Origin: Propionibacteriaceae bacterium
GTDB taxonomy: Bacteria; Actinomycetota; Actinomycetes; Propionibacteriales; Propionibacteriaceae
NCBI GenBank assembly: GCA_031256725.1
Contig: JAIRQE010000010.1
Coordinates: 17,194 to 49,193 of the forward strand
Direction: 5' to 3'
Length of the DNA: 32,000 nucleotides
The notes under the pieces are model-generated. The model had not been told where the DNA came from and searched no databases. It saw nothing but the letters and a program-made list of their open reading frames with translations. Both the position numbers and the translations under genes were made by a program. The first letter of the stretch is position 1, and each line of letters starts with the position of its first letter. Positions 967 to 17,981 of the stretch are shown piece by piece.

Positions 967-985
967 TTCTCATGAACTCCTGTGA

Positions 986-1022
986 GCGCCAATCCACTTT
1001 ATGTGGGTTGGCGTTTACTTTT
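986..1022 (+). terminator. Rho-independent terminator of rpoA-rplQ
   Basis: The stem pairs gcgccaatccac (986-997) with gtgggttggcg (1003-1013). It is 11 bp including one G:U, with loop tttat, followed by tttactttt. Confidence 0.75.
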
Positions 1023-1196
1023 ATGGTGCATGATCACTTAACTTCGACAAAATCGCTGTGCGATTTGGTCTCGTGTCCCTCGCGAAAGAGTTTTACCTTC
1101 GCCTTCCCTGATAACCAGTAGTCACTTATGATAACATTATGACGCGATTTCTTTGGTTGATGGAAGGTCCAAAATCGTAGATAGGGGTACTCAACT

Positions 1197-1685
1197 GTGG
1201 GCGTTTTTGAGATCTTTCAACTGTGTATTCCAGTTGTGACATTTGCTATGGGGTACTTCTTTACGAATATCGGGTACAAGCGGGAGAGAAAGCTGAGCAT
1301 CATTCGGGAGAAGTTCGAGAAGCTTTATCATCCGTTTTATATGTTGATTCAGGAACTTGGTACAGAGAGGGAGGACGGGTTCGCCCTCGATAGTGATAAT
1401 CTTGATACCTTGAAACCCTTCTTTGACCACCTGATTAGCAATGTGTATCTCGCATCATCTGAGGGACAGAGGATCTTCTGGGAAACACGACAGTGGTACA
1501 TCCTGTGTCACAAGAGCGAGGCAACACCCGAGTGGGAGGAGGCCCTAGGCAAGGGGATTGGAGACCTCTTTAGCCACCTCTTTGAAGAGTACCTCGCCTG
1601 CGCTCGAACTTTGGGGTACGACCTCGCCTTTGGGTGGTACGGCGCCCGTACCGAAGAAGACTCTGATGCCCAAGAGCAGAGTTAG
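1197..1685 (+). CDS. hypothetical protein with one N-terminal hydrophobic helix (orphan ORF in an AT-richer patch)
   Basis: This is the only long ORF in the stretch and starts with GTG. The N-terminal segment FEIFQLCIPVVTFAMGYFF is hydrophobic. I recognise no family motif. The start is uncertain; an alternative ATG lies at 1248. Confidence 0.45.
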   Translation: MGVFEIFQLCIPVVTFAMGYFFTNIGYKRERKLSIIREKFEKLYHPFYMLIQELGTEREDGFALDSDNLDTLKPFFDHLISNVYLASSEGQRIFWETRQWYILCHKSEATPEWEEALGKGIGDLFSHLFEEYLACARTLGYDLAFGWYGARTEEDSDAQEQS

Positions 1686-1696
1686 CGCCGGTTTTG

Positions 1697-1729
1697 TTTT
1701 GGTGTGTTTTCGTGTCAAGAGGCCACAGG
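1697..1729. repeat. direct repeat copy 1 (TTTTGG...TGTCAAGAGG..ACAGG)
   Basis: ttttggtgtgttttcgtgtcaagaggccacagg resembles 1887-1917, ttttggcgcttttccatgtcaagaggacagg. TTTTGG and TGTCAAGAGG are shared exactly. Confidence 0.6.
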
Positions 1730-1782
1730 TCGGGTCCTTTAAGAATCAACGGCTTGAACACCATCAATTCTTTAGGGACACG

Positions 1783-1840
1783 ACCCCCCCCCACACACAC
1801 AACCAACCTCACACCCACGTACACCCTTCCCCCCCACCGC
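1783..1840 (+). repeat. strand-asymmetric C/A-rich low-complexity tract with C9 and C7 homopolymers
   Basis: acccccccccacacacacaaccaacctcacacccacgtacacccttcccccccaccgc. The C9 run is at 1784-1792 and the C7 run at 1829-1835. The + strand has almost no G, so the complement is G-rich. Confidence 0.9.
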
Positions 1841-1886
1841 AGATGAGACGAGCCGCTTATACCTAAGCAGAATCAGGGCCGTTCGG

Positions 1887-1917
1887 TTTTGGCGCTTTTC
1901 CATGTCAAGAGGACAGG
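1887..1917. repeat. direct repeat copy 2 (TTTTGG...TGTCAAGAGG..ACAGG)
   Basis: See 1697-1729. The two copies bracket the C/A-rich tract. Confidence 0.6.
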
Positions 1918-1944
1918 CCCAAGGATTGGATCATGAATGATCAC

Positions 1945-2352
1945 TCAATAGGTTAGTCTTCCAACAGGGTCCTCGGTCGTGAGTACCTCCCAGCCGAGCG
2001 AGGTTGCGGTCTTAATGAGTCCCTGATCAAAGGTCGCCAAGGTCGCACCGTGATAAGCGACCGTATCTAGAACGCAACAATGAGGCAAACGCAAGCGAGT
2101 GGAAATGCGAAGATGAGCAATCCTGGAAGGATGGGCGTCATCAGGAGACCATATTTCAATTCCGAGATTATGGATGGCTTGCGTGACGAGTGTCTCGCTG
2201 TTAACTCGCACAGCTCCTACAAGGATCTCTGAATAAGTGAGAGGATGAAGGAGTAGCTCTTCCTCGTGATCCATGATGGTTGCAGCAGGCTGAGAATGGA
2301 TGTGACCTTTTTCCAAGAGTGCAATGACCACGCAGGCATCGAGAACGATCAT
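1945..2352 (-). CDS. vapC: PIN-domain ribonuclease toxin VapC
   Basis: The N-terminus MIVLDACVVIAL carries the conserved Asp. Acidic residues in YSEIL, CVLDT and TFD are spaced as in PIN domains. The gene lies 11 nt downstream of a small antitoxin-like ORF on the same strand. Confidence 0.8.
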   Translation of the reverse strand: MIVLDACVVIALLEKGHIHSQPAATIMDHEEELLLHPLTYSEILVGAVRVNSETLVTQAIHNLGIEIWSPDDAHPSRIAHLRISTRLRLPHCCVLDTVAYHGATLATFDQGLIKTATSLGWEVLTTEDPVGRLTY

Positions 2353-2363
2353 TCACCCCAGCC

Positions 2364-2621
2364 TTACCAGTCTTTGCGTAATTCTTCAAGAAAGTTGTCA
2401 GGGAACGCCCCGGATAGAATCCCTTGTGATTCAGCTATTGCTTTCCTTCGAACAGCTCTCTTCGCCTCTCGCTCATCGGCCAAAGCCTGAGAACCGAGCA
2501 CTATCAATTGAGTTGCGATCTTGCTTTTGGGGGCATCCGGCCACCGGGAAGCAGCAGCCTCAAGAGCATCTTGAACCTGGTCCGTGAGTGTGATCTGAAT
2601 ACGCGGCAGAGTGGTAGCCAT
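2364..2621 (-). CDS. vapB: VapB-type antitoxin (ribbon-helix-helix-like N-terminus)
   Basis: This 85-aa ORF lies directly upstream of vapC. The N-terminal MATTLPRIQITLTDQVQDALEAAA looks like an RHH strand-helix. A TACACT box and an inverted repeat lie at its start. Confidence 0.7.
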   Translation of the reverse strand: MATTLPRIQITLTDQVQDALEAAASRWPDAPKSKIATQLIVLGSQALADEREAKRAVRRKAIAESQGILSGAFPDNFLEELRKDW

Positions 2622-2627
2622 AAGGAT

Positions 2628-2656
2628 AGTGTACCACTGAACATCTTTAGTGGTAC
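2628..2656 (-). promoter_or_regulatory. putative vapBC promoter/operator: -10 TACACT overlapped by a perfect 8-bp inverted repeat
   Basis: On the - strand TACACT (2633..2628) lies 6 nt before the vapB ATG (2621), implying a leaderless transcript. On the + strand gtaccact (2631-2638) and agtggtac (2649-2656) form a perfect inverted repeat with a 10-nt spacer. Confidence 0.5.
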
Positions 2657-2687
2657 AGATGCTGGATGGCGAAGACAGTCATGGCAC

Positions 2688-2975
2688 GACACGGTGGTGA
2701 ACGTCGCGAAATTAACATTTGTCGTTACTCCAGTGGAGCGATTGGTTTCCGCATACCTTGACCTAGCCGAGTCAATGGCTATGAAGCGAATTCCCATGAC
2801 GATGGAAGACTGGGAGGAACGGCTCAATGGATTTCCGGCCATAGCCGATCGTGAGATTCTCCAAGATGCTGGAAGAGTGAGCGCAGAGATCGCGAAAGCT
2901 CATGTAGAAACAGAGTTTGAGGAATATCGCATCGCCCAGGATGCGCTCTTTCGTTCGGACTTCGACAGATTCTAG
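2688..2975 (+). pseudogene. C-terminal remnant of a RhuM-family (virulence protein RhuM-like) gene
   Basis: The translation ...VERLVSAYLDLAESMAMKRIPMTMEDWEERLNGFPAIADREILQDAGRVSAEIAKAHVETEFEEYRIAQDALFRSDFD matches the conserved RhuM C-terminus (..MYLDxAE....PMxMxDW..KLDxFL....REIL..AGK.S...A...A..EYEK.R). The upstream part of the family is absent, and that space is occupied by vapB on the other strand. Confidence 0.55.
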
Positions 2976-3028
2976 GAGTTGTAGAATCAGGCCTCCATGA
3001 AAACCAGAAGTGATCTGTATGCTCACGG

Positions 3029-3072
3029 TTATTCTGAATCAGGGGTAGTTTTATTCTGAATCAGGGGTAGTT
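3029..3072 (+). repeat. perfect 22-bp tandem duplication (ttattctgaatcaggggtagtt x2) in the serS promoter region
   Basis: Period-22 identity holds exactly from 3029 to 3072 and breaks at both flanks. A degenerate third gaatcagg lies at 2984-2991. Confidence 0.95.
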
Positions 3073-3084
3073 GTGGTGAGGCAC

Positions 3085-3090
3085 TAGACT
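3085..3090 (+). promoter_or_regulatory. -10 box TAGACT of a leaderless serS transcript
   Basis: TAGACT fits the actinobacterial TANNNT consensus. It is followed by 7 nt (tgtaccc) and then the serS ATG at 3098. There is no Shine-Dalgarno sequence. Confidence 0.55.
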
Positions 3091-3097
3091 TGTACCC

Positions 3098-4372
3098 ATG
3101 ATTGATCCGAAACTGATTCGTACTAACCCTGACTACCTGAAGCGTGCCCAAGTAGCGCGCGGGGAGTCTGAAGAGTTGATCGACCAATTGATCTCGGCAG
3201 ATGAGGATCGTCGTACGGCTATCGCAAGCTTTGAGGCACTCAGGGCCCAGCAGAAGGAACTGGGGCGTTCGGTCGCCAAAGCCACATCCGAGACTCGTCC
3301 TGCACTCCTGGCTGAGGCATCAGCATTGGCTGAGAAGGTTAAAGAAGCCGAGGCAGCCTCCAGCGAAGTGGAAGCCACCTTTAATGAGTTGATGGCACTC
3401 GTACCCAACCCTGTTTTTGATGAGGTACCTCGCGGTGGGGAAGAGGACTTTGCCGTCCTCGAAACTGTCGGGACTCCGCGTGACTTTGAAGCGGAAGGTT
3501 TCACGCCGAAAGACCATCTGGAGCTTGGGGAGATCCTGGGAGCCATCGATATGGAACGAGGGGCCAAGGTTTCGGGATCGCGGTTCTATTTCTTGACGGG
3601 TGTGGGGGCCTTGCTGGAATTGGCGCTGACCCAGTACGCCGTCACGAAGGCGGTGGAATGGGGTTTCAACCCGATGATCGTACCCTCGCTTGTGAAGCCT
3701 TCGGCTATGGAGGGTACTGGCTTCCTTGGTCAGGCGGCCCAGGATGTCTACCATCTGCCAGCCGATGATCTCTACCTCGTGGGTACCTCTGAGGTTGCGC
3801 TGGCTGCGTACCATTCCGATGAGATCCTGGATGCGGGCACCCTTCCACGAAAATACATGGGGTACAGCCCCTGTTTCAGGCGCGAAGCCGGCTCCTATGG
3901 CAAGGACACTCGCGGTATCTTCCGCGTCCACTGGTTCGACAAGGTCGAGATGTTTGTGTACTGCCGTCCTGAGGATTCCGAAGCCGAACACCTCAACCTG
4001 CTGAACTTCGAGAAGGAGTTCATCACCTCGCTGGGGATCCCCTTCCAGGTTCTGGATGTTGCCTCGGGGGATTTAGGGCTGTCCGCAGCCCGCAAGTACG
4101 ACTGCTATGGGTGGGTACCAAGCCAGCAGAAGTACAGGGAAATCACCTCGACCTCGAACTGTACCCAGTTCCAGGCCCGTCGTCTCAATATCAGAGCCCG
4201 TTATGAGGATGGGATCGGCCCAGTCGCAACCCTCAACGGTACCCTGTGCGCCATGCCAAGGATGATCATCATGATCCTGGAGAATAATCAGCAAGAAGAC
4301 GGCTCAGTGGTCGTACCTGAGGTGCTTAGACCCTATCTTGGGGGACGTGAGGTACTGTCTCCTCTTTCATAG
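3098..4372 (+). CDS. serS: seryl-tRNA synthetase
   Basis: The N-terminus [23 protein letters not shown] is followed by a coiled-coil arm. Class II motifs are present ([49 protein letters not shown]). Confidence 0.97.
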
Positions 4373-6990: not shown

Positions 6991-8364
6991 ATGATTGATG
7001 TGACGGACCTGACTAAGAGGTTCGGTAGGAAGACTGCTGTCGACGATTTAAGCTTCTCCGTGCGCGCAGGTATGGTTACCGGATTCTTGGGACCCAATGG
7101 GGCAGGTAAGTCCACAACAATGAGGCTCATTCTTGGCCTTGATCGACCCAACAACGGTCGTGCTCGCGTTAATGGTCGTACCTACAAATCCACTAAGGCG
7201 CCTATGACAGAGGTTGGTGCCCTTCTTGACTCCAAATCTGTACACCCTGGACGTACTGCTCGCAATCATCTTCGTGCGCTGGCGGCCACCCATGGAATCT
7301 CACGGAAACGAGTCGATGAAGTCATCGAGATGGTTGGCCTTGAGTCTGTTGCCAGAAAGCGGGCTGGTACCTTCTCCCCAGGGATGAGCCAACGCCTAGG
7401 GTTAGCGATCGCATTATTGGGAGATCCGCAGACTCTCATCCTTGATGAGCCTATGAACGGGCTTGATCCTCAGGGGGTTGCATGGCTCCGAAACCTCTTG
7501 GAGCATCTGTCATCTGAGGGGAGGACAGTCTTCGTTTCAAGCCATCTCATCTCAGAAATGGCTCAGCTTGCCAGTCATCTCATTATCATCGGTAGGGGAC
7601 AACTCATCGCGGATTCACCCACGGCTGAGCTTGCCGAGAAAGGGTCAGGCGTTGTCACGCGTGTGAGATCCCCTGAATTGGGAGAACTTGCGGAAGCGGT
7701 CAAGGAAGCCGGTCATACTTATACCGATCCGGGGGATGGATCACTGTTGATCTCAGGATTGACCCCGGACGCCATTGGTGATGAGGCGGCTTACAGGGGC
7801 TGGGCAATCTATGAGATGGCTCCAGTACACCGCACCCTGGAGGAAATCTACATGGAGTTGACCCACTCCGTGCAGGAGTTCCAGGCAGAAAACAGCATCT
7901 TCGGGTCTCCAATGAGGAGTCCTTCAAAGCCACCCGTCATACTAAAACCACCCGTGTCCATGCATACGATTCCCCACGAAGCGCCTGTCCAACATCACCG
8001 TCGCGATGTGGAGCCCCAAAGTCTCACAACCACGGGAAGCCATCGAGTGACCGATATTTTCCGTGACGACGATACCCCACCACCTGATCCTGTACACATA
8101 TCAACTCCCCATTTGCAGTTGGGGCCGGTACGATCTCCCCAAACACGTCCGGGACGAGCACCCACAGATTCGATCGTGCCAAGCGACCTGGGGCCACATG
8201 TGCGGCCAAGGCCTATGGGAGTCCATCCCAGTGCAGATTCATGGGATGACTCCTATGATGATACCCGCATACCTGAGTCTTATGACTACGACTCCTATGA
8301 CTCTGATTATGATGACGATGATGATTACGCCCATCCCCCCAGATCCCGGGCATGGGAGGTCTGA
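6991..8364 (+). CDS. ABC transporter ATP-binding protein (ABC-2 subfamily partner) with a ~150-aa P-rich, D/Y-rich C-terminal extension
   Basis: The motifs are canonical: Walker A GPNGAGKST, signature FSPGMSQRL, Walker B LILDEP and H-loop SSHL. The usual C-terminus (TLEEIYMELT) is followed by a low-complexity tail ending DSWDDSYDDTRIPESYDYDSYDSDYDDDDDYAHPP. Confidence 0.9.
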   Translation: MIDVTDLTKRFGRKTAVDDLSFSVRAGMVTGFLGPNGAGKSTTMRLILGLDRPNNGRARVNGRTYKSTKAPMTEVGALLDSKSVHPGRTARNHLRALAATHGISRKRVDEVIEMVGLESVARKRAGTFSPGMSQRLGLAIALLGDPQTLILDEPMNGLDPQGVAWLRNLLEHLSSEGRTVFVSSHLISEMAQLASHLIIIGRGQLIADSPTAELAEKGSGVVTRVRSPELGELAEAVKEAGHTYTDPGDGSLLISGLTPDAIGDEAAYRGWAIYEMAPVHRTLEEIYMELTHSVQEFQAENSIFGSPMRSPSKPPVILKPPVSMHTIPHEAPVQHHRRDVEPQSLTTTGSHRVTDIFRDDDTPPPDPVHISTPHLQLGPVRSPQTRPGRAPTDSIVPSDLGPHVRPRPMGVHPSADSWDDSYDDTRIPESYDYDSYDSDYDDDDDYAHPPRSRAWEV

Positions 8365-10325: not shown

Positions 10326-12068
10326 GTGAGCGATCAATCTCAACGTATTCCTTTCAGCTCGCGTGGTAGTTCAGCGCGCGCAGATGGGCGCTCGTCGAGG
10401 GTACGACCCTCATCTGGTTCGCCACGAAATGTCGAACCAGAGTTGACAGCCATGTTTGGCGAGGAGGAAGTCCTACGCCGCCCCCCAGATCCATTTGAGG
10501 AGAAGATCTTGACCGGACGAAACAGTTTCACCGATCTCAGAGACCACCTAGCCGAAGAAGACACTGACAGGCCACGTTCAGGATCATCTGGCAGTTCGCG
10601 TGTACCACGGACACCGGCAACCAGATCCCGGGTCGGTGCAGCAGGGGATTCCAAGGTTGCCGCATTGAGGCGAGACCTGGCTGGGGGTGGAGGAAGCTCT
10701 CGCTCTTCTGCTGCAGATTCCAGATCGCGTTTCTTGCAAGAGGACGATGTGGTCGAGACACGTCCCCGCAGTAGGGTTTCCTCAGATTCTGAAGAAAGAC
10801 TTGCCTCGCTCAGGCGTGAGTTGGCTGATCGCAGAGCAGCTACCGCTGATCCTGCTCCACGGGTACGCCCCTCAGCACCAAGTGCACGCAGGCCGCGAGT
10901 GAGTCGTGAAGAAGAGGTGGAGATCCGCGAACGCGCTACACAAGAACTACCACCTCGCTCTAGGCGCCCTGTCGTCGACGATCCGCCACCGCGCAGGGTC
11001 CCACGTACGCGACCCCCAGTTGAAGAGTACGACTATGAAGAGCCTTTCGAAAACTTCGAGCCAGAAGTAGAGACACCTCCACCACCACCGAGGCAGCGTC
11101 GTACAACCACACGTAAGCCAGTTGAAGTAGTCGAAGTGATCGAGGAGATCGAAGAGGAGGACCTGGGTCCATCCTTTGAGCCTCCCCAGGTGATAGAGGA
11201 AGAGCCTCCAGTTATTGCTATTCTTGAGGAAGCTCCAGTCGAGCCGCCAGTTGAAAAGAAGGAGACTCGTCGTCGAGCTAAGACACCCAAGGCTGAACCT
11301 GCTCCGGTTGTGACTCCCTCACGTGCGCCACGGGCCGCAACAGGGGAGATCGCAAAGATTTCTGGGCTAACTAAGATCATTGGGAGTTCGTCACAGAAGA
11401 CAGAGGTACTTCGCAGGGTTGATCTCGTACTCGGTCAAGGGCAGATGACAGCGATCATGGGTTCCCCCGGCGCTGGCGTGTCAACACTGATTCAATGCAT
11501 CGCTGGTATCGAATCCCCAACATCGGGATCAATCACGGTGGCTGGTCAGAACATCACAGGGTTCAAAGAAGGGCAACTGGCCAAGTTCCGACGCAGCAAT
11601 GTGAGCCACGTCTTCTCAGCCTTCAACCTGATCCCGACCCTAACAACGGCAGAGAATATTCGTCTGCCTATGATCCTTCAGAAGAAGTCTGTGGATTCGG
11701 CTTGGTACGACCAGGTTGTGACAACCCTGCACCTCACGGATGCGCTCACCCACAAGCCAAGCGCTTTGAGCCCGTCTCAGCGCCAGCGCGTTGCCTTTGC
11801 GCGGGCTCTGTTGGGTAAGCCTGCGATTATCGTTGCAGATGATCCGACTGCGGATCTCAACCAGGAGGCCAGTGTTGAACTCATTGGTTGGGTCAGGGAT
11901 TGTATGTCCATATCCGAGCAGTCCATTGTTGTGGGTACGCAGGACCCCATCCTTGCCGCCATGGCTGACCGTGTCTGCGTGATGAGAGATGGTGTCATTG
12001 TAACCGAGATCAGTTCGCCAAGTGTGAGCCGCGTCATGGACGCTCTTCGTACAGTGGCGGGTGGTTAA
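10326..12068 (+). CDS. MacB/LolD-type ABC nucleotide-binding-domain protein with degenerate catalytic motifs and a ~340-aa disordered N-terminal extension
   Basis: The C-terminal ~230 aa align without gaps to the FtsE/LolD/MacB NBD pattern. Walker A is GSPGAGVST (Lys to Val). The Q-loop is HVFSAFNL (Gln to Ser). The signature is LSPSQ. Walker B is IIVADDPT (Glu to Asp). The H-loop is GTQD (His to Gln). The N-terminal 340 aa are R/S/P/E-rich low complexity. Confidence 0.85.
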   Translation: MSDQSQRIPFSSRGSSARADGRSSRVRPSSGSPRNVEPELTAMFGEEEVLRRPPDPFEEKILTGRNSFTDLRDHLAEEDTDRPRSGSSGSSRVPRTPATRSRVGAAGDSKVAALRRDLAGGGGSSRSSAADSRSRFLQEDDVVETRPRSRVSSDSEERLASLRRELADRRAATADPAPRVRPSAPSARRPRVSREEEVEIRERATQELPPRSRRPVVDDPPPRRVPRTRPPVEEYDYEEPFENFEPEVETPPPPPRQRRTTTRKPVEVVEVIEEIEEEDLGPSFEPPQVIEEEPPVIAILEEAPVEPPVEKKETRRRAKTPKAEPAPVVTPSRAPRAATGEIAKISGLTKIIGSSSQKTEVLRRVDLVLGQGQMTAIMGSPGAGVSTLIQCIAGIESPTSGSITVAGQNITGFKEGQLAKFRRSNVSHVFSAFNLIPTLTTAENIRLPMILQKKSVDSAWYDQVVTTLHLTDALTHKPSALSPSQRQRVAFARALLGKPAIIVADDPTADLNQEASVELIGWVRDCMSISEQSIVVGTQDPILAAMADRVCVMRDGVIVTEISSPSVSRVMDALRTVAGG

Positions 12069-12073
12069 TCGGT

Positions 12074-14635
12074 ATGAAGGGTGTCAAAGTTGGTGTTCAG
12101 GGAAGCCCTGGACGCTTGGTACTCGCCGTCCTAGCTGTAGTGTTGGGAATGGCTGTTGCGTCGTTCGCTCTCTTCCTGCGTGGATCAGTGACAACAACAC
12201 TGTCCACAGTCGTGGACAAGGTGCTAAGCGCTGATGTGTATATTCTGCCGGCGGATTCCAGTCCTGCCGATATGATGACCCAGCCTAAGGTTTATCAGAA
12301 GTTCCTTGATTCGCGTGTGACTGCGCAGATTTCTGTGATACCTGAGGTGAGGGGAGTCTTCTCGGTTTATGTTGGTCAGGTTCAATTAACGAAGTCCGAT
12401 GGTACCGTAGTCTCATCTGGAGTAGCCCCATCGGTTGGCATCGGTGTTGATACTAATGAAGTTGAGTCATCGCGGCTGATAGATGGTGCCTTCCCGACCA
12501 GTCCCTCGGAAATCGCTGTGGAGCAGGCAACTGCCGAACGAGCTGGATTATCTGTTGGTGACAAAGCTCAATTAATAGCCAATGGCAATAGGTTCGACCC
12601 CGAAGTCACGATCTCAGGCATTGTCTCCTATGATTCTGATCTTGGTGGGGCTACCGTGGTCTTCCTCAACGGTATCGTTGCTCGCGCAGTATTCTCACCA
12701 TCGTCGATGGTACCTCTGATCGCTGTACGGGTACAGGATGATGCGAGTCCTGCCGATGGTCGCAATGCCATTGAGGCTGCTCTTGAGAGCGAAGTCGACG
12801 CGAAGATTGTGGTTGGTTCCGAGCTCCGTAAGCAGACGGTAAGCTCTGCAATGAACTCCTTGTCCACCCTTGGGATTGGTCTGCTTATTCTGGCTGGCTT
12901 GGGTGTCGCTATCGGTGGTCTCCTCGTTGGCGCAACCTTTGCAGGGGCTCAGCGGGAGAATATCTCTACGATTGCCACCTTGAAGGCATTCGGTGCAACG
13001 ACCAGCCAAGTACTCGGTAAGTCCATATCCCAGGCTGCCGCAGTTGGATTCATCGGATCCATCTTCGGGATCGCCATAGGATTCGTCGTGGCTGTCCTTG
13101 TGAGAGCGATCATGACGGCACAGGGTCTGGCTCTCAGTCTGGGTATTCCCGTGATCGAATTGGCGCTCTGCTTTGTCGCGATGATGATTGTCACCATTCT
13201 TGCGGCCTGGCTTGGGTCCCGCAGGGTGGCGAATGTTGCCCCCCGCGAGGCGATAAACGGTTTTGCTGCGGGTAGGTCTGGTCTAGGTCTGGTACGCGTC
13301 ATCATAGGTGTTGTCCTCATCCTCGCCGGAGTTGGTGCTGCCATGTGGGTCGTCTTCTCGTCCCAGTCTGCCCTGATTATCTATGCGGGTTTGGTAGCCA
13401 TCCTCATGGGGGTCTTGCTCGCTGCACCACTGTTACTTATAGCGTTCGCTCCCATTTTCGCGGCCCCGCTTAGACTCATCTCTTCAGTGTCTGGACGCTT
13501 GGCCAAACACAATCTCATCCGCAGTCCTCGTCCTGCCGCTAATGTTGCGGGCGTTATGATTCTTGGTTTCTCACTGGCAACAGCAGGATTGATTATCGCC
13601 TCCACTGCAGACGCAGCTATTGGTGATTCACTGCACAGGGATGTACCTGCTGACTATGTCATTCAGCCGGATAGCGGTAATAGTTTCATCCCTGATCAGG
13701 CTGTTGCTCAGGTACGTCAGATCCCTGGTCTCAGTGTTGTTGCCTACGGGCAAGCCCCAGTACGGGTACTCAACGATGAGGGCAAGGTTCTTGATGCCGA
13801 TGTGCTCTTTGGTCCACCGGATACCTTCTCTTCCAGTCTCAGTGAGGTTGCCATCGTTGATGGGGCTCCTGAGCAATTCCGTGATGGGTTGGCTCTCAAC
13901 AAGGCTTTTGCTGATGCTCAAGGAATACGTGTCGGTGATACACTCAAACTGCTCGTAGCACAGGACACCCCGCACGAAGACACCCTGTCCTTGTCGGTGG
14001 CGGTGATTGTGGATTCGCAGTTCTTCCGTGACGTGCTCATCCCGACAGGGCTTCTCATTGAGCCGATTCCTGGCCATGCACGTACACAGTTCATGCCGAT
14101 TACTACAGTGTTCATTACGGCAGCCAATGAGGGTACAGTTCAGGTTCTGCGTGACCAGATCCAAGAGGCACTATCTGGGTATGAAGGACTTAAACTCTCT
14201 TCTCGTGACGAGTTTATTTCCACTCCCTCACCAGTGGTAACACAGATTCGTACAGCGGCCTTGATCCTTATTGGTTTGGTTGCCCTCGTCGCCATTGTCG
14301 GGATATCCGTCATCCTAGGTCAGGCAGTTATCCAACGTGAGAAGAACATCGGTCTGATGAGGATTAGTGGGGCCTCCCGTGGACAGATGAGGCGGGCGGT
14401 CACATTCGAGTCGCTGCTGATCTGTGCAACGAGTGCCTTCGTGGGTATCCTCGGTGGTGTGGGTCTGGCATATCTTGGTTTGCGGATACTTCCAAGCCTT
14501 GGCATGACGACTCTGGTTTTCCCATGGCTGTGGATTGTCGGACTCTTTGTTGTGGCACTCCTAGTAGGATTTGTCGCTGGTATTGCCCCTGCGCGACGCG
14601 CGGGTTCAGTACCTCTACTGACAATGGCAGCCTAG
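12074..14635 (+). CDS. FtsX/MacB-type ABC transporter permease, duplicated (two FtsX domains, 853 aa)
   Basis: An N-terminal TM helix is followed by a large extracytoplasmic domain and a 3-TM bundle, and this arrangement occurs twice. This is typical of actinobacterial double-FtsX permeases. The gene starts 5 nt after the NBD gene. Confidence 0.85.
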   Translation: MKGVKVGVQGSPGRLVLAVLAVVLGMAVASFALFLRGSVTTTLSTVVDKVLSADVYILPADSSPADMMTQPKVYQKFLDSRVTAQISVIPEVRGVFSVYVGQVQLTKSDGTVVSSGVAPSVGIGVDTNEVESSRLIDGAFPTSPSEIAVEQATAERAGLSVGDKAQLIANGNRFDPEVTISGIVSYDSDLGGATVVFLNGIVARAVFSPSSMVPLIAVRVQDDASPADGRNAIEAALESEVDAKIVVGSELRKQTVSSAMNSLSTLGIGLLILAGLGVAIGGLLVGATFAGAQRENISTIATLKAFGATTSQVLGKSISQAAAVGFIGSIFGIAIGFVVAVLVRAIMTAQGLALSLGIPVIELALCFVAMMIVTILAAWLGSRRVANVAPREAINGFAAGRSGLGLVRVIIGVVLILAGVGAAMWVVFSSQSALIIYAGLVAILMGVLLAAPLLLIAFAPIFAAPLRLISSVSGRLAKHNLIRSPRPAANVAGVMILGFSLATAGLIIASTADAAIGDSLHRDVPADYVIQPDSGNSFIPDQAVAQVRQIPGLSVVAYGQAPVRVLNDEGKVLDADVLFGPPDTFSSSLSEVAIVDGAPEQFRDGLALNKAFADAQGIRVGDTLKLLVAQDTPHEDTLSLSVAVIVDSQFFRDVLIPTGLLIEPIPGHARTQFMPITTVFITAANEGTVQVLRDQIQEALSGYEGLKLSSRDEFISTPSPVVTQIRTAALILIGLVALVAIVGISVILGQAVIQREKNIGLMRISGASRGQMRRAVTFESLLICATSAFVGILGGVGLAYLGLRILPSLGMTTLVFPWLWIVGLFVVALLVGFVAGIAPARRAGSVPLLTMAA

Positions 14636-14650
14636 ATTCTTGACAAAACT

Positions 14651-14690
14651 AAAGGGCTGGTACCTTCTCGGTACCAGCCCTTTATGTTTG
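14651..14690. terminator. bidirectional Rho-independent terminator between the permease gene and groEL
   Basis: aaagggctggtacc ttctc ggtaccagcccttt forms a perfect stem pairing 14651-14664 with 14670-14683. It is flanked by A-rich sequence on the 5' side and T-rich sequence (tttatgttt) on the 3' side. Confidence 0.85.
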
Positions 14691-14697
14691 GACTTAG

Positions 14698-16320
<1,623 letters not shown>

Positions 16321-16327
16321 TCAATCC

Positions 16328-16624
16328 TTAACGTGTGACCTTGGCGAGGATATCGCGGGCATTGAGCAGGAGGTAGTCGTTACCGTCGTACTTCACTTCA
16401 GTACCGCCGTACTTGGAGAAGATAACAATGTCGCCTTCTGCAACATCCATAGGGATGCGCTTTCCGGAGTCGTCCGTACGGCCTGGGCCGGTTGCGACGA
16501 CCTTTCCTTCTTGCGGCTTCTCTTTAGCGGTGTCTGGAATAACCAGGCCAGAAGCAGTAGTCTGCTCGGCCTCCAATGGCAGAACGAGGACCCTGTCCTC
16601 GAGCGGCTTGATCGTGGCTGCCAC
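16328..16624 (-). CDS. groES: co-chaperonin GroES
   Basis: [49 protein letters not shown]... The start is the GTG at 16624, with gaaagggg upstream. The ORF-track N-terminal extension to 16714 runs into the 5' UTR and I reject it. Confidence 0.95.
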
Positions 16625-16727
16625 GTCAAGACCCCTTTCATGTCCGAGTGACTCGTGAGTCACATGTGGTTTCGTCTTTCTCCCGATGTCGTCGCGGGGC
16701 CACCGGGCTAGCACACCGATGTGTGCT

Positions 16728-17058: not shown

Positions 17059-17237
17059 TTATAGATACTATAATGATAGTGTGAACATGGCGATTGTGTA
17101 CATGATTAACTAGGAAAAAGTGTATATACACTACATAATTAAGTGGCAAAAATGTATGTAAGGTACACAAAACCCCGGATAAAACTGTTGGTTCTTGGGA
17201 TGGTGGGAAAGTCGTACGCACGTACTATCCTTAAGAC

Positions 17238-17981
17238 ATGCTTATTGTGACCACACTTGAGATTCCGGGATACAAGATTGATGCTGTCCTTGGCGAGGTC
17301 ATGGGAATGACTGTCCGCAGCGCTACTAGTGGCGCGAACCTGGCTGGCGTTAACGGGAGGGGAGAGATCTCGGAGTACACAAACATGGTCTACGAATCCA
17401 GGAACCAGGTGATGCAAAGGATGTGGGATCAATGCGTCCAGCGGGGTGGTAATGCCATTGTAGGTATGAGGTTCGATACGGCCGATATCGCGGCTTCCTT
17501 TTCGGAGGTGTGCGCTTATGGTACGGCAGTGGTCATTCGCCCTATAGCTACTGAGGTGCAAGGGGGTACTCCCCAATCTATTGCTCATGCGGCGGGCCAG
17601 CCGAACCCGGGAATTCCTAGTCCTCAGCCACAGGGGTACGCTCCCCAACAACCTCAGGAATATGCCCCACAGCAGGTGCAGGACTATCCACAAGCCCAGG
17701 AATATCCGCGAGTTCAGGAGTATCCCCAGCAAGTACAGGGATACACTTTGCAGCCTGAGGAGTACCAGCAAGGCTATGCTCCACAACCTGCGGAGTACCA
17801 GCAAGGGTATGCTCCCCAGCAAGTACAGGAGTACCCACTTCAGGAGTTTGTCTCCCAGCCGGAATACCCACCCATTTCACAGGGATCCCCTCTGGGGCAG
17901 GGTGCCCCAGCTCCGGCGTCTCAGTTTGGTCAGCCTCAGCCGTACCCGCAGCAGTCTTTTGGGCAATCTGATTTTCACTGA
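17238..17981 (+). CDS. YbjQ/UPF0145 (DUF74) domain protein with a ~140-aa Q/P/Y-rich repeat tail
   Basis: The N-terminal ~105 aa, MLIVTTLEIPGYKIDAVLGEVMGMTVRS...GGNAIVGMRFDT...AYGTAVVI, match the YbjQ pattern. The C-terminal half consists of degenerate (E/G)Y(A)PQQ(V)Q repeats. Confidence 0.85.
   Translation: MLIVTTLEIPGYKIDAVLGEVMGMTVRSATSGANLAGVNGRGEISEYTNMVYESRNQVMQRMWDQCVQRGGNAIVGMRFDTADIAASFSEVCAYGTAVVIRPIATEVQGGTPQSIAHAAGQPNPGIPSPQPQGYAPQQPQEYAPQQVQDYPQAQEYPRVQEYPQQVQGYTLQPEEYQQGYAPQPAEYQQGYAPQQVQEYPLQEFVSQPEYPPISQGSPLGQGAPAPASQFGQPQPYPQQSFGQSDFH
17760..17825 (+). repeat. in-frame 33-bp tandem repeat (EYQQGYAPQxx x2) inside the YbjQ tail
   Basis: gagtaccagcaaggctatgctccacaacctgcg is followed by gagtaccagcaagggtatgctccccagcaagta. 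The surrounding ~280 bp is built from shorter degenerate versions. Confidence 0.85.

Follow-up and report, generated by a model that had tools for sequence, protein, structure and literature searches.

An ATP-binding cassette domain with every ATP-site motif substituted, encoded beside an intact YbbP-like permease in a Propionibacteriaceae genome

Transporters of the ATP-binding cassette (ABC) type are defined by the ATP-driven dimerisation of their nucleotide-binding domains (NBDs), and the question raised by the locus described here is what such a domain can still do when all of its ATP-site motifs have been replaced. The locus lies in a stretch of 32,000 nucleotides (hereafter the window) from an uncultured Propionibacteriaceae bacterium (assembly GCA_031256725.1, contig JAIRQE010000010.1, positions 17,194 to 49,193), in which a gene for a 580-residue protein with a degenerate NBD directly precedes a permease gene; the two genes are referred to as the cassette. 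An earlier note, made from the sequence alone, had described a probable pseudo-ATPase with substitutions in Walker A, Q-loop, signature, Walker B, D-loop and H-loop, encoded by an intact gene at a 5-nt distance from an intact 853-residue double-FtsX permease (12074-14635). All of these motif calls proved correct in the phmmer register and by translation, and the arrangement of the two intact genes was confirmed by the coordinates of the open reading frames (ORFs) and by the PF02687 match of the permease. The NBD gene and its ATP-site elements, with motif coordinates verified by translation, are the following:

10326..12068, plus strand: whole NBD gene, 580 residues, composed of an N-terminal disordered extension and a degenerate ABC NBD
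11346..12065, plus strand: ABC NBD, residues 341-580, all ATP-site motifs substituted, fold predicted to be intact (Pfam, phmmer, AlphaFold2, Foldseek)
11358..11384, plus strand: A-loop region ISGLTKIIG, aromatic residue replaced by Ile352 (Y352I)
11460..11486, plus strand: Walker A, GSPGAGVST versus GPSGSGKST (K385V; Ser381 replaced by Pro)
11607..11630, plus strand: Q-loop, HVFSAFNL versus FVFQQF (Q431S)
11766..11780, plus strand: signature (C-loop), LSPSQ versus LSGGQ
11826..11849, plus strand: Walker B, IIVADDPT versus IILADEPT (catalytic E506D)
11850..11861, plus strand: D-loop ADLN, directly after Walker B
11928..11945, plus strand: H-loop (switch), VVGTQD versus VTHE/THD (H539Q)

The membership of this domain in the ABC NBD superfamily is indicated by a PF00005 score above the gathering threshold and by the predicted fold. 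The Pfam match covers residues 362-509 with 98.6 bits (E = 5.8e-28, cut-off 25) and extends over profile positions 1-137 of 137, which bears out the motif register assumed in the note; the score is as high as that of the neighbouring ABC ATPase (95.9 bits). The comparison of residues 339-580 with solved structures by phmmer (5xu1 from S. pneumoniae; BceA 7tcg/8s5g) gave E values of 6e-38 to 1e-36 and a single unambiguous register, with short insertions and deletions between the motifs only, and the register is equally unambiguous against BceA, LolD and MacB. An artefact is negligible as an explanation, whether it stemmed from a wrong alignment register, from faults in sequencing or assembly or from a chimeric contig of a metagenome-assembled genome (MAG). 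No evidence in its favour has been found, Pfam, NCBIfam, phmmer against the PDB and MAFFT agree on one register, and synteny is continuous across the NBD gene in at least 12 related loci. The NBD gene is not a product of faulty assembly either, since a stretch of 9652 nt recurs with 100% identity in an independent Logan assembly (public run SRR14710887).

In place of the residues of a competent ATPase, the window NBD carries (i) Val at Lys385 of Walker A (GxxGxGK[ST]); (ii) IIVADD at the Walker B glutamate (hhhhDE), a change present in 1 of the 21 members of the family described below; (iii) Gln at the H-loop histidine, Ser at the Q-loop glutamine and LSPSQ for LSGGQ; (iv) Ile352 at the A-loop, where most relatives possess Tyr or Phe. 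The A-loop aromatic residue stacks on adenine. In total, seven ATP-site elements are substituted, while the P-loop glycine scaffold (GxxGxG), Ser386/Thr387 and Walker B Asp505 are retained. Judged from these residues, the window NBD would have lost ATP binding, and no ATP cycle is predicted to be possible in a homodimer. The retained glycines, Ser386/Thr387 and Asp505 could also belong to a domain that binds nucleotide without hydrolysing it and serves as a slow ATP/ADP-sensing switch, and the intermediate family members, with Lys, Glu and His present but Gln and the signature lost, could work in this manner. Such a switch is nevertheless very improbable, as the Walker A lysine, the A-loop aromatic residue and both signature glycines are gone, a combination that according to established ABC biochemistry removes most of the phosphate and adenine contacts.

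The loss of these residues has not been accompanied by a visible loss of the fold. The AlphaFold2 (AF2) model based on a 40-sequence alignment has a predicted local distance difference test score (pLDDT) of 92-98 across residues 341-580, and the Foldseek target-normalised TM-scores to BceA, MacB, MJ0796, YbbA, LolD and FtsE are 0.87-0.92. A leave-one-out conservation test was performed with 20 family members and three canonical relatives, using the columns conserved to at least 85% in the others. The window keeps 49 of the 57 columns conserved to this degree in the 23 relatives; half of its eight deviations (G364R, S381P, K385V, L389I, G427S, E506D, L530S and H539Q) are ATP-site residues, and the non-catalytic conserved positions are kept at 49 of 53. 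The window NBD is thus predicted to keep its fold, and the earlier reading of a catalytically dead domain appears to hold, given the motif losses, the preserved fold and the purifying selection discussed below.

The closest database proteins to the window protein, of which L001 (family members are given by locus label) is the nearest relative, show only 54% identity. The 90% cluster of the window protein contains identical sequences only, and no closer relative was found in metagenome and genome scans. Scans of GTDB (one genome per species) and of JGI metagenomes with N-terminal peptide patterns returned members only in “Propionibacteriaceae bacterium” MAGs and in unlabelled metagenome contigs, several of which are the source contigs of those MAGs. 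The MAG names Nt197, Emb289 and Lab288 match a data set from the gut of higher termites (PMC7024585); the origin of the other MAGs, the contigs and the window was not traced. The scan matches and further database proteins form a family of 21 distinct full-length members. On the contigs of the closest database proteins, where an FtsX permease of 850-870 residues follows the NBD gene, the orthologous ORFs have a length of 585-589 residues when read from the correct start and possess the long N-terminal extension. The loci share the gene order SerRS-HAD-ABC/ABC2-CDF-X-permease-GroEL/ES, X being the position of the NBD gene, with groEL/groES convergent to the cassette and with occasional neighbours missing (CDF in L002). 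The window belongs to the family by its motif 1 (AELAAIFGEDELLRHPPDPFEEKILTGRNSFTDLRDQL), two RIAxLRRDLA helices, disordered linker and type VII NBD whose signature is non-canonical, and by the permease of about 850 residues encoded next in the CDF-X-permease-groEL synteny. In the window, as in most other loci, a CDF (cation efflux) gene lies upstream of the cassette. L002/L003 lack it between the ABC-2 permease gene and the NBD gene; since their close relative L013 has it, a small lineage-specific deletion is indicated.

The comparison of the 21 members revealed a graded erosion of the ATP site. The canonical signature LSGGQ is present in none of them (0/21), the variants including LSSGQ, LTAGQ, LSAAQ, LTPAQ and LSASE. 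The Q-loop glutamine is kept in 5/21 and replaced by G, A, P, S, E or R in the remaining 16/21. Less frequent are the losses of the A-loop aromatic residue (4/21), of the H-loop histidine (4/21: Q in the window, A in L006, T in L011, S in L021), of the Walker A lysine (2/21: V in the window, L in L011) and of the Walker B glutamate (1/21, the window only). The sister L001 retains Lys, Glu and His, and the complete loss is therefore specific to the window lineage. The note had named canonical motifs in orthologues as a finding that would refute its reading, and this applies in part, as L002/L013, L009/L012 and L019 keep Lys, Gln, Glu and His; the erosion is nevertheless family-wide and recurrent. 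The second most degenerate member is L011 (1575-3473 of JAIRVA010000166.1), with Walker A GLPHAGLTD (Lys to Leu), Pro in the Q-loop, Thr in the H-loop and a deleted A-loop, but with the Walker B glutamate kept; by its sequence it would represent an independent route to a dead site.

Neighbour-joining trees were calculated from the housekeeping neighbours and from the cassette itself. Both place the window and L001 beside the Gln-keeping pair L002/L013, and the other Gln-keeping lineages (L009/L012 and L019) adjoin Gln-less ones. As the Gln-keepers are scattered on both trees, the losses have been multiple and independent. The sequences accordingly portray the window as the end-point of a family-wide, recurrent erosion rather than as an isolated accident.

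For the same genome pairs, window versus related genomes, the identity to the window is 91-95% for GroEL, 80-84% for SerRS, 74-78% for the NBD of the other ABC ATPase (6991) and 69-79% for CDF, but only 41-55% for the cassette NBD and 35-48% for the cassette permease (29% to L007). Family members are 39-58% identical within a genome group whose GroEL is more than 90% identical to that of the window, while the canonical relatives share 60-63% identity with one another across actinobacterial orders. With identities below those of the controls and of these relatives, the cassette is fast-evolving. The ratios of nonsynonymous to synonymous substitutions (dN/dS, Nei-Gojobori) of the NBD are 0.036 for L009/L012, 0.086 for L002/L013 and about 0.30 for both L022/L028 and L005/L009; for the window and L001, averaged over both branches, dN amounts to 0.37 and dS, which is saturated, to about 2.2. 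In Tajima relative-rate tests the window NBD has no excess rate over L001, L002 or L013; an excess is seen only against the most canonical members, namely L009 and, with less consistency, L019. The dN/dS values show the cassette to be still under purifying selection.

Relaxed selection on a dispensable transporter, with the cassette on its way to loss, the substitutions as the first damage and no function remaining, is considered unlikely. It would agree with the confinement of the complete loss to the window lineage, with the position of NBD and permease as the fastest-evolving genes of the neighbourhood, with NBD dN/dS values that are 2- to 3.4-fold those of the neighbouring ABC NBD when the same pairs are compared, and with coupling helices of the permease that are unusually variable in the family. 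Decay is, however, difficult to reconcile with two intact ORFs (580 + 853 codons; 1433) after more than 45% amino-acid divergence from the nearest relative, with a dN far below dS, with the lack of rate acceleration against L001, L002 or L013 and with the retained non-catalytic positions described above. Furthermore, the frame is open and the gene intact in all 21 members, every permease that the contig allows to be read to its end is intact as well, and motif 1 of the window has retained 75% identity with the other family members.

That motif belongs to the first 340 residues of the protein, a region with a high content of Arg, Pro, Glu and Ser. Disorder is predicted for most of it, interrupted by conserved islands:

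10431..10559, plus strand: N-terminal motif 1, residues 36-78, VEPELTAMFGEEEVLRRPPDPFEEKILTGRNSFTDLRDHLAEE, three short helices predicted
10650..10688, plus strand: N-terminal motif 2, residues 109-121, SKVAALRRDLAGG, first copy of the RIAxLRRDLA helix, 69% mean identity
10788..10838, plus strand: N-terminal motif 4, residues 155-171, SEERLASLRRELADRRA, second copy of the RIAxLRRDLA helix, 69% mean identity
10839..11345, plus strand: disordered linker rich in Pro, Glu and Arg, residues 172-340 (P 21%, E 18%, R 14%)

Motif 1 has a mean pairwise identity of 82% among the 21 members, compared with 51% for the NBD and 35% for the linker. The strongest constraint within the cassette therefore falls on a new lineage-specific cytoplasmic motif and not on the ATPase. 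The two RIAxLRRDLA copies are separated by a region with a short SRFF element. Helices are predicted by AF2 at residues 37-51, 56-62 and 69-77 (motif 1), 110-119 and 154-172, the last with a pLDDT of 70-87, while the linker has a pLDDT mostly below 60 and varies in length between orthologues. A phmmer search with residues 1-175 against 1.84 billion representative proteins gave nine matches, all of them family members. Pfam at E values up to 10, applied to the N-terminal region of three members, returned only a chance ATG16 match (E = 0.065). Canonical relatives lack the extension, an example being P0004, which accompanies an 858-residue permease. The functional picture is changed by this family-unique and most conserved motif, and the extension is probably the key to the function. 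Together with the loss of the A-loop aromatic residue, the 340 N-terminal residues that carry the best conserved element of the cassette go beyond what the earlier note had described.

The reading of the extension as coding sequence is supported by several features. The gene starts with GTG, with GGGAGA 8 nt upstream, and ends with TAA at 12066-12068, followed by 5 nt and the permease ATG at 12074; the NCBI gene call for the identical protein (P0242) also has 580 residues. An untranslated region or mis-called start was ruled out by the open frame in 21/21 members, by the identity of motif 1, by a dN/dS of 0.08-0.15 over the first 130 codons and by the start context (M/V)S(D/E)QSQ kept in orthologues. 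ORFs on the minus strand overlap the extension (for instance 11033-11380 in the window) and were taken as shadow ORFs of a GC- and Pro/Arg-rich region. One of them, a spurious gene of 244 residues, has been called in the public assembly of L002 (9165-9899, minus strand). Automatic calls in public assemblies also shorten orthologues to 241 or 413 residues (L001 1362-2603; L002 10001-10726), and the calls P0001, P0002 and P0121 (241, 413 and 538 residues) are truncations of this type. Database annotation consequently hides the N-terminal module.

The second gene of the cassette encodes the following protein:

12074..14635, plus strand: intact 853-residue YbbP-like permease with 10 transmembrane helices and two FtsX stretches

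PF02687 matches the permease with 89.1 bits in two stretches. Hydropathy analysis indicates 10 transmembrane (TM) helices. One large extracytoplasmic domain separates TM1 from TM2 and another TM7 from TM8; these MacB/LolC-like domains are located at about residues 36-262 and 511-725. The AF2 model has a mean pLDDT of 82 and a predicted TM-score of 0.78, and its best Foldseek match is E. coli YbbP (9ge6_A; E = 7e-24, TM-scores 0.62/0.65), followed by LolE, BceB and MacB. In sequence, its relatives are widespread actinobacterial FtsX + MacB_PCD permeases of about 840-860 residues, at 25-29% identity. The coupling helices correspond to residues 289-319 and 749-781 (nucleotides about 12938-13030 and 14318-14416). 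Their motifs AQRTRELALLRA.GASRRQV and ERTRE.GLLRAVG are near-invariant in canonical homologues and far more variable across the family; the window keeps the family pattern, and in L007 the second helix is almost unrecognisable. This divergence suggests that the coupling between NBD and transmembrane domain has been relaxed too.

By the FtsX-type 4-TM unit of its permease, the extracytoplasmic domain between TM1 and TM2 and the adjacent MacB/LolD-type NBD, the cassette is a type VII system. The best NBD matches are LolD, DevA, YbbA, MacB and FtsE, yet all equivalog scores remain below the cut-offs: 136.3 versus 336 for YbbA and 27.5 versus 999 for YbbP (NF007879, NF041854), 152 versus 307.75 for LolD, 133 versus 966 for MacB, 138 versus 295.8 for DevA, 125.3 versus 264.85 for FtsE (TIGR02673), and 16.9 versus 250 and 18 versus 225 for FtsX (NF038346, NF038347). 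An assignment to FtsEX, LolCDE, MacB or DevCA was ruled out by these NCBIfam cut-offs and by the topology of 10 TM helices. The cassette derives from type VII ABC systems and falls into the architectural class of YbbAP, but outside every named equivalog.

YbbP of E. coli has the same topology as the window permease and binds two YbbA subunits (YbbA2:YbbP1; PDB 9ge6/9ge7; PMC12646458). Shared with YbbAP are the 10 TM helices, the extracytoplasmic domains at TM1-2/TM7-8, the two FtsX halves joined by TM5-6, an NBD that matches YbbA with a target-normalised TM-score of 0.88-0.92, and an NBD gene immediately upstream of the permease gene. The differences relate to the permease identity of only 17%, to YbbA being a canonical ATPase that drives mechanotransmission whereas every ATP-site motif of the window NBD is substituted, to the lack of an N-terminal extension in YbbA and to the lack of a TesA-like partner gene near the window cassette. 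The closest relatives outside the family are uncharacterised actinobacterial pairs of an ABC protein (about 250 residues) and a duplicated FtsX/MacB_PCD permease (about 840-860 residues), such as P0004 with its neighbour and the Streptomyces permeases P0250-P0265. They have the same gene order and permease length, with identities of 42-47% for the NBD and 25-29% for the permease, but possess canonical Walker A, Q-loop, LSGGQ, Walker B and H-loop motifs and no N-terminal extension.

The note had further proposed an FtsEX-like mechanotransmission module. FtsEX has the NBD fold and the FtsX transmembrane domain in common with the cassette and exemplifies type VII systems in which a signal, and not a substrate, is passed on; however, FtsX has four TM helices and one extracytoplasmic domain and dimerises. 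The cut-offs, the topology and Foldseek show the window permease to be a YbbP-like 10-TM pseudo-dimer and the cassette not to be an FtsEX orthologue. The ATPase activity of FtsE is reported to be required for FtsEX function (PMC3735124, PMC11627006).

Substitutions of the Walker B glutamate, H-loop histidine, Q-loop glutamine and signature glycine are also known from degenerate-site transporters (TM287/288, TmrAB, CFTR, Pdr5), in which two different NBDs are reported to pair and one consensus site to drive the cycle (review PMC7756269). In the window the Walker A lysine and the A-loop aromatic residue are lost as well, and since there is one NBD gene for a single-polypeptide permease, both ATP sites would be identical and dead. 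In the open-access text searched, no fully degenerate homodimeric or type VII NBD was found, degenerate sites being described only in asymmetric pairs.

A second, competent NBD encoded elsewhere could pair with the dead domain or replace it, leaving the permease ATP-driven through one consensus site, in the manner of heterodimeric ABC exporters with a degenerate site. The family pattern, in which the signature is degenerate while Walker A, Walker B and H-loop are mostly intact, resembles one half of a known asymmetric NBD pair, and only part of the genome is visible. Yet a second type VII NBD is lacking in the 32-kb window, none adjoins the cassette in the syntenic loci, and the adjacent ATPase 6991 is part of an ABC-2 system that has a permease of its own. 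Moreover, with Walker A, Walker B, H-loop and signature all degenerate, a heterodimer would at best have a site without a proper signature. A rescuing partner is for these reasons quite improbable.

The reading preferred here, with a probability of roughly 55%, is that the pseudo-ATPase is kept as a structural or adaptor cytoplasmic subunit of the YbbP-like permease, with the N-terminal motifs as the functional interface. The type VII (MacB/LolD/YbbA-like) NBD would have kept its fold while ATP binding and hydrolysis were lost, and, docked on the permease, it would most likely still form an NBD2:permease1 membrane complex, which in the window lineage would work without an ATP cycle. As a structural cap or adaptor, the dead NBD would then keep the N-terminal motifs tethered at the permease's cytoplasmic face, where these motifs may bind a cytoplasmic partner, so that a signal or recruitment would pass via binding and not via hydrolysis. 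The acquisition of the extension may have been the cause of relaxed selection on the ATP site, after which the catalytic motifs would have been eroded repeatedly and independently in related genomes.

Several points weigh against this reading. The putative loss of ATP binding is deduced from the established roles of the Walker A lysine, Walker B glutamate, H-loop histidine and A-loop aromatic residue. Because L001, with only 54% identity, is the closest relative in the collections and dS is saturated, selection acting after the final losses of Lys, Glu and His cannot be isolated. Several orthologues look ATPase-competent, and the ancestral function therefore probably needed ATP; the window version could be the broken copy of a dispensable system. 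The AF2 confidence in the N-terminal motifs is only moderate (pLDDT 62-87), and with 32 kb of the genome visible a rescuing NBD elsewhere is possible. More tentatively than the adaptor role itself, it may be proposed that a type VII lineage turned into an ATP-independent scaffold or signalling module after the gain of its N-terminal arm, with many independent erosions, and that the cassette might represent the first homodimeric ABC pseudo-ATPase maintained by selection.

The remaining genes of the window are ordinary chromosomal housekeeping genes, none of them an obvious candidate for an extracytoplasmic partner, and an Rfam scan of the whole window at gathering thresholds matched no RNA family. 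Downstream of the permease one further element was recognised:

14650..14684, strand ".": hairpin (15-bp stem) in the interval that separates the permease gene from the convergent groEL gene

This hairpin is a probable bidirectional terminator closing the cassette. Within 14698-16714 (minus strand), GroEL ends in a GHGHGH tail, and the mechanical groES ORF (128 residues) is about 25-30 residues longer than the aligned region of most orthologues; its true start is therefore probably internal. The ABC-2-type ATPase at 6991-8364 (plus strand), which the note had regarded as fully canonical, is so in Walker A, Walker B and H-loop. The best phmmer alignment, however, places Asp (VGALLD) at its Q-loop position and gives FSPGM as its signature. 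Its C-terminal tail of about 200 residues is of low complexity, with much Pro, Asp and Tyr, and shows little conservation among orthologues; the whole protein is 57-71% identical to them, compared with 74-78% for the NBD. Long disordered tails seem to be common in the genome of the window. The gene at 17238-17981 (plus strand) encodes a YbjQ_1 (putative heavy-metal-binding) domain followed by a Gln/Pro/Tyr-rich repeat tail of about 140 residues (…QEYPQQVQGY…), and the long opposite-strand ORF above it (17139-17822) is probably a shadow ORF. About 2.1 kb at 967-3097 separate rplQ (433-966) and serS (3098-4372), while the L17 and SerRS genes are adjacent in L002. This insert contains an ORF without Pfam match (1197-1685) and a 155-residue ORF (2508-2975) that matches only the C-terminal part of the RhuM virulence-protein family, and it may be a mobile-element remnant.

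In practical terms, all members of the family are uncultured and known from MAGs and metagenomes, from termite-gut samples where the source is traceable. Motif 1, which carries no annotation, is a concrete starting point from which the partner, and through it the function, can be sought. The 21 variants of the same locus, from near-canonical to dead, constitute a natural mutagenesis panel, in which it can be seen which motifs are lost first and what replaces them. If the proposed reading is true, the family would form a natural series that begins with apparently active members (L009, L019) and ends with a completely dead one (the window), and a type VII ABC scaffold could have a function that needs no nucleotide cycle.

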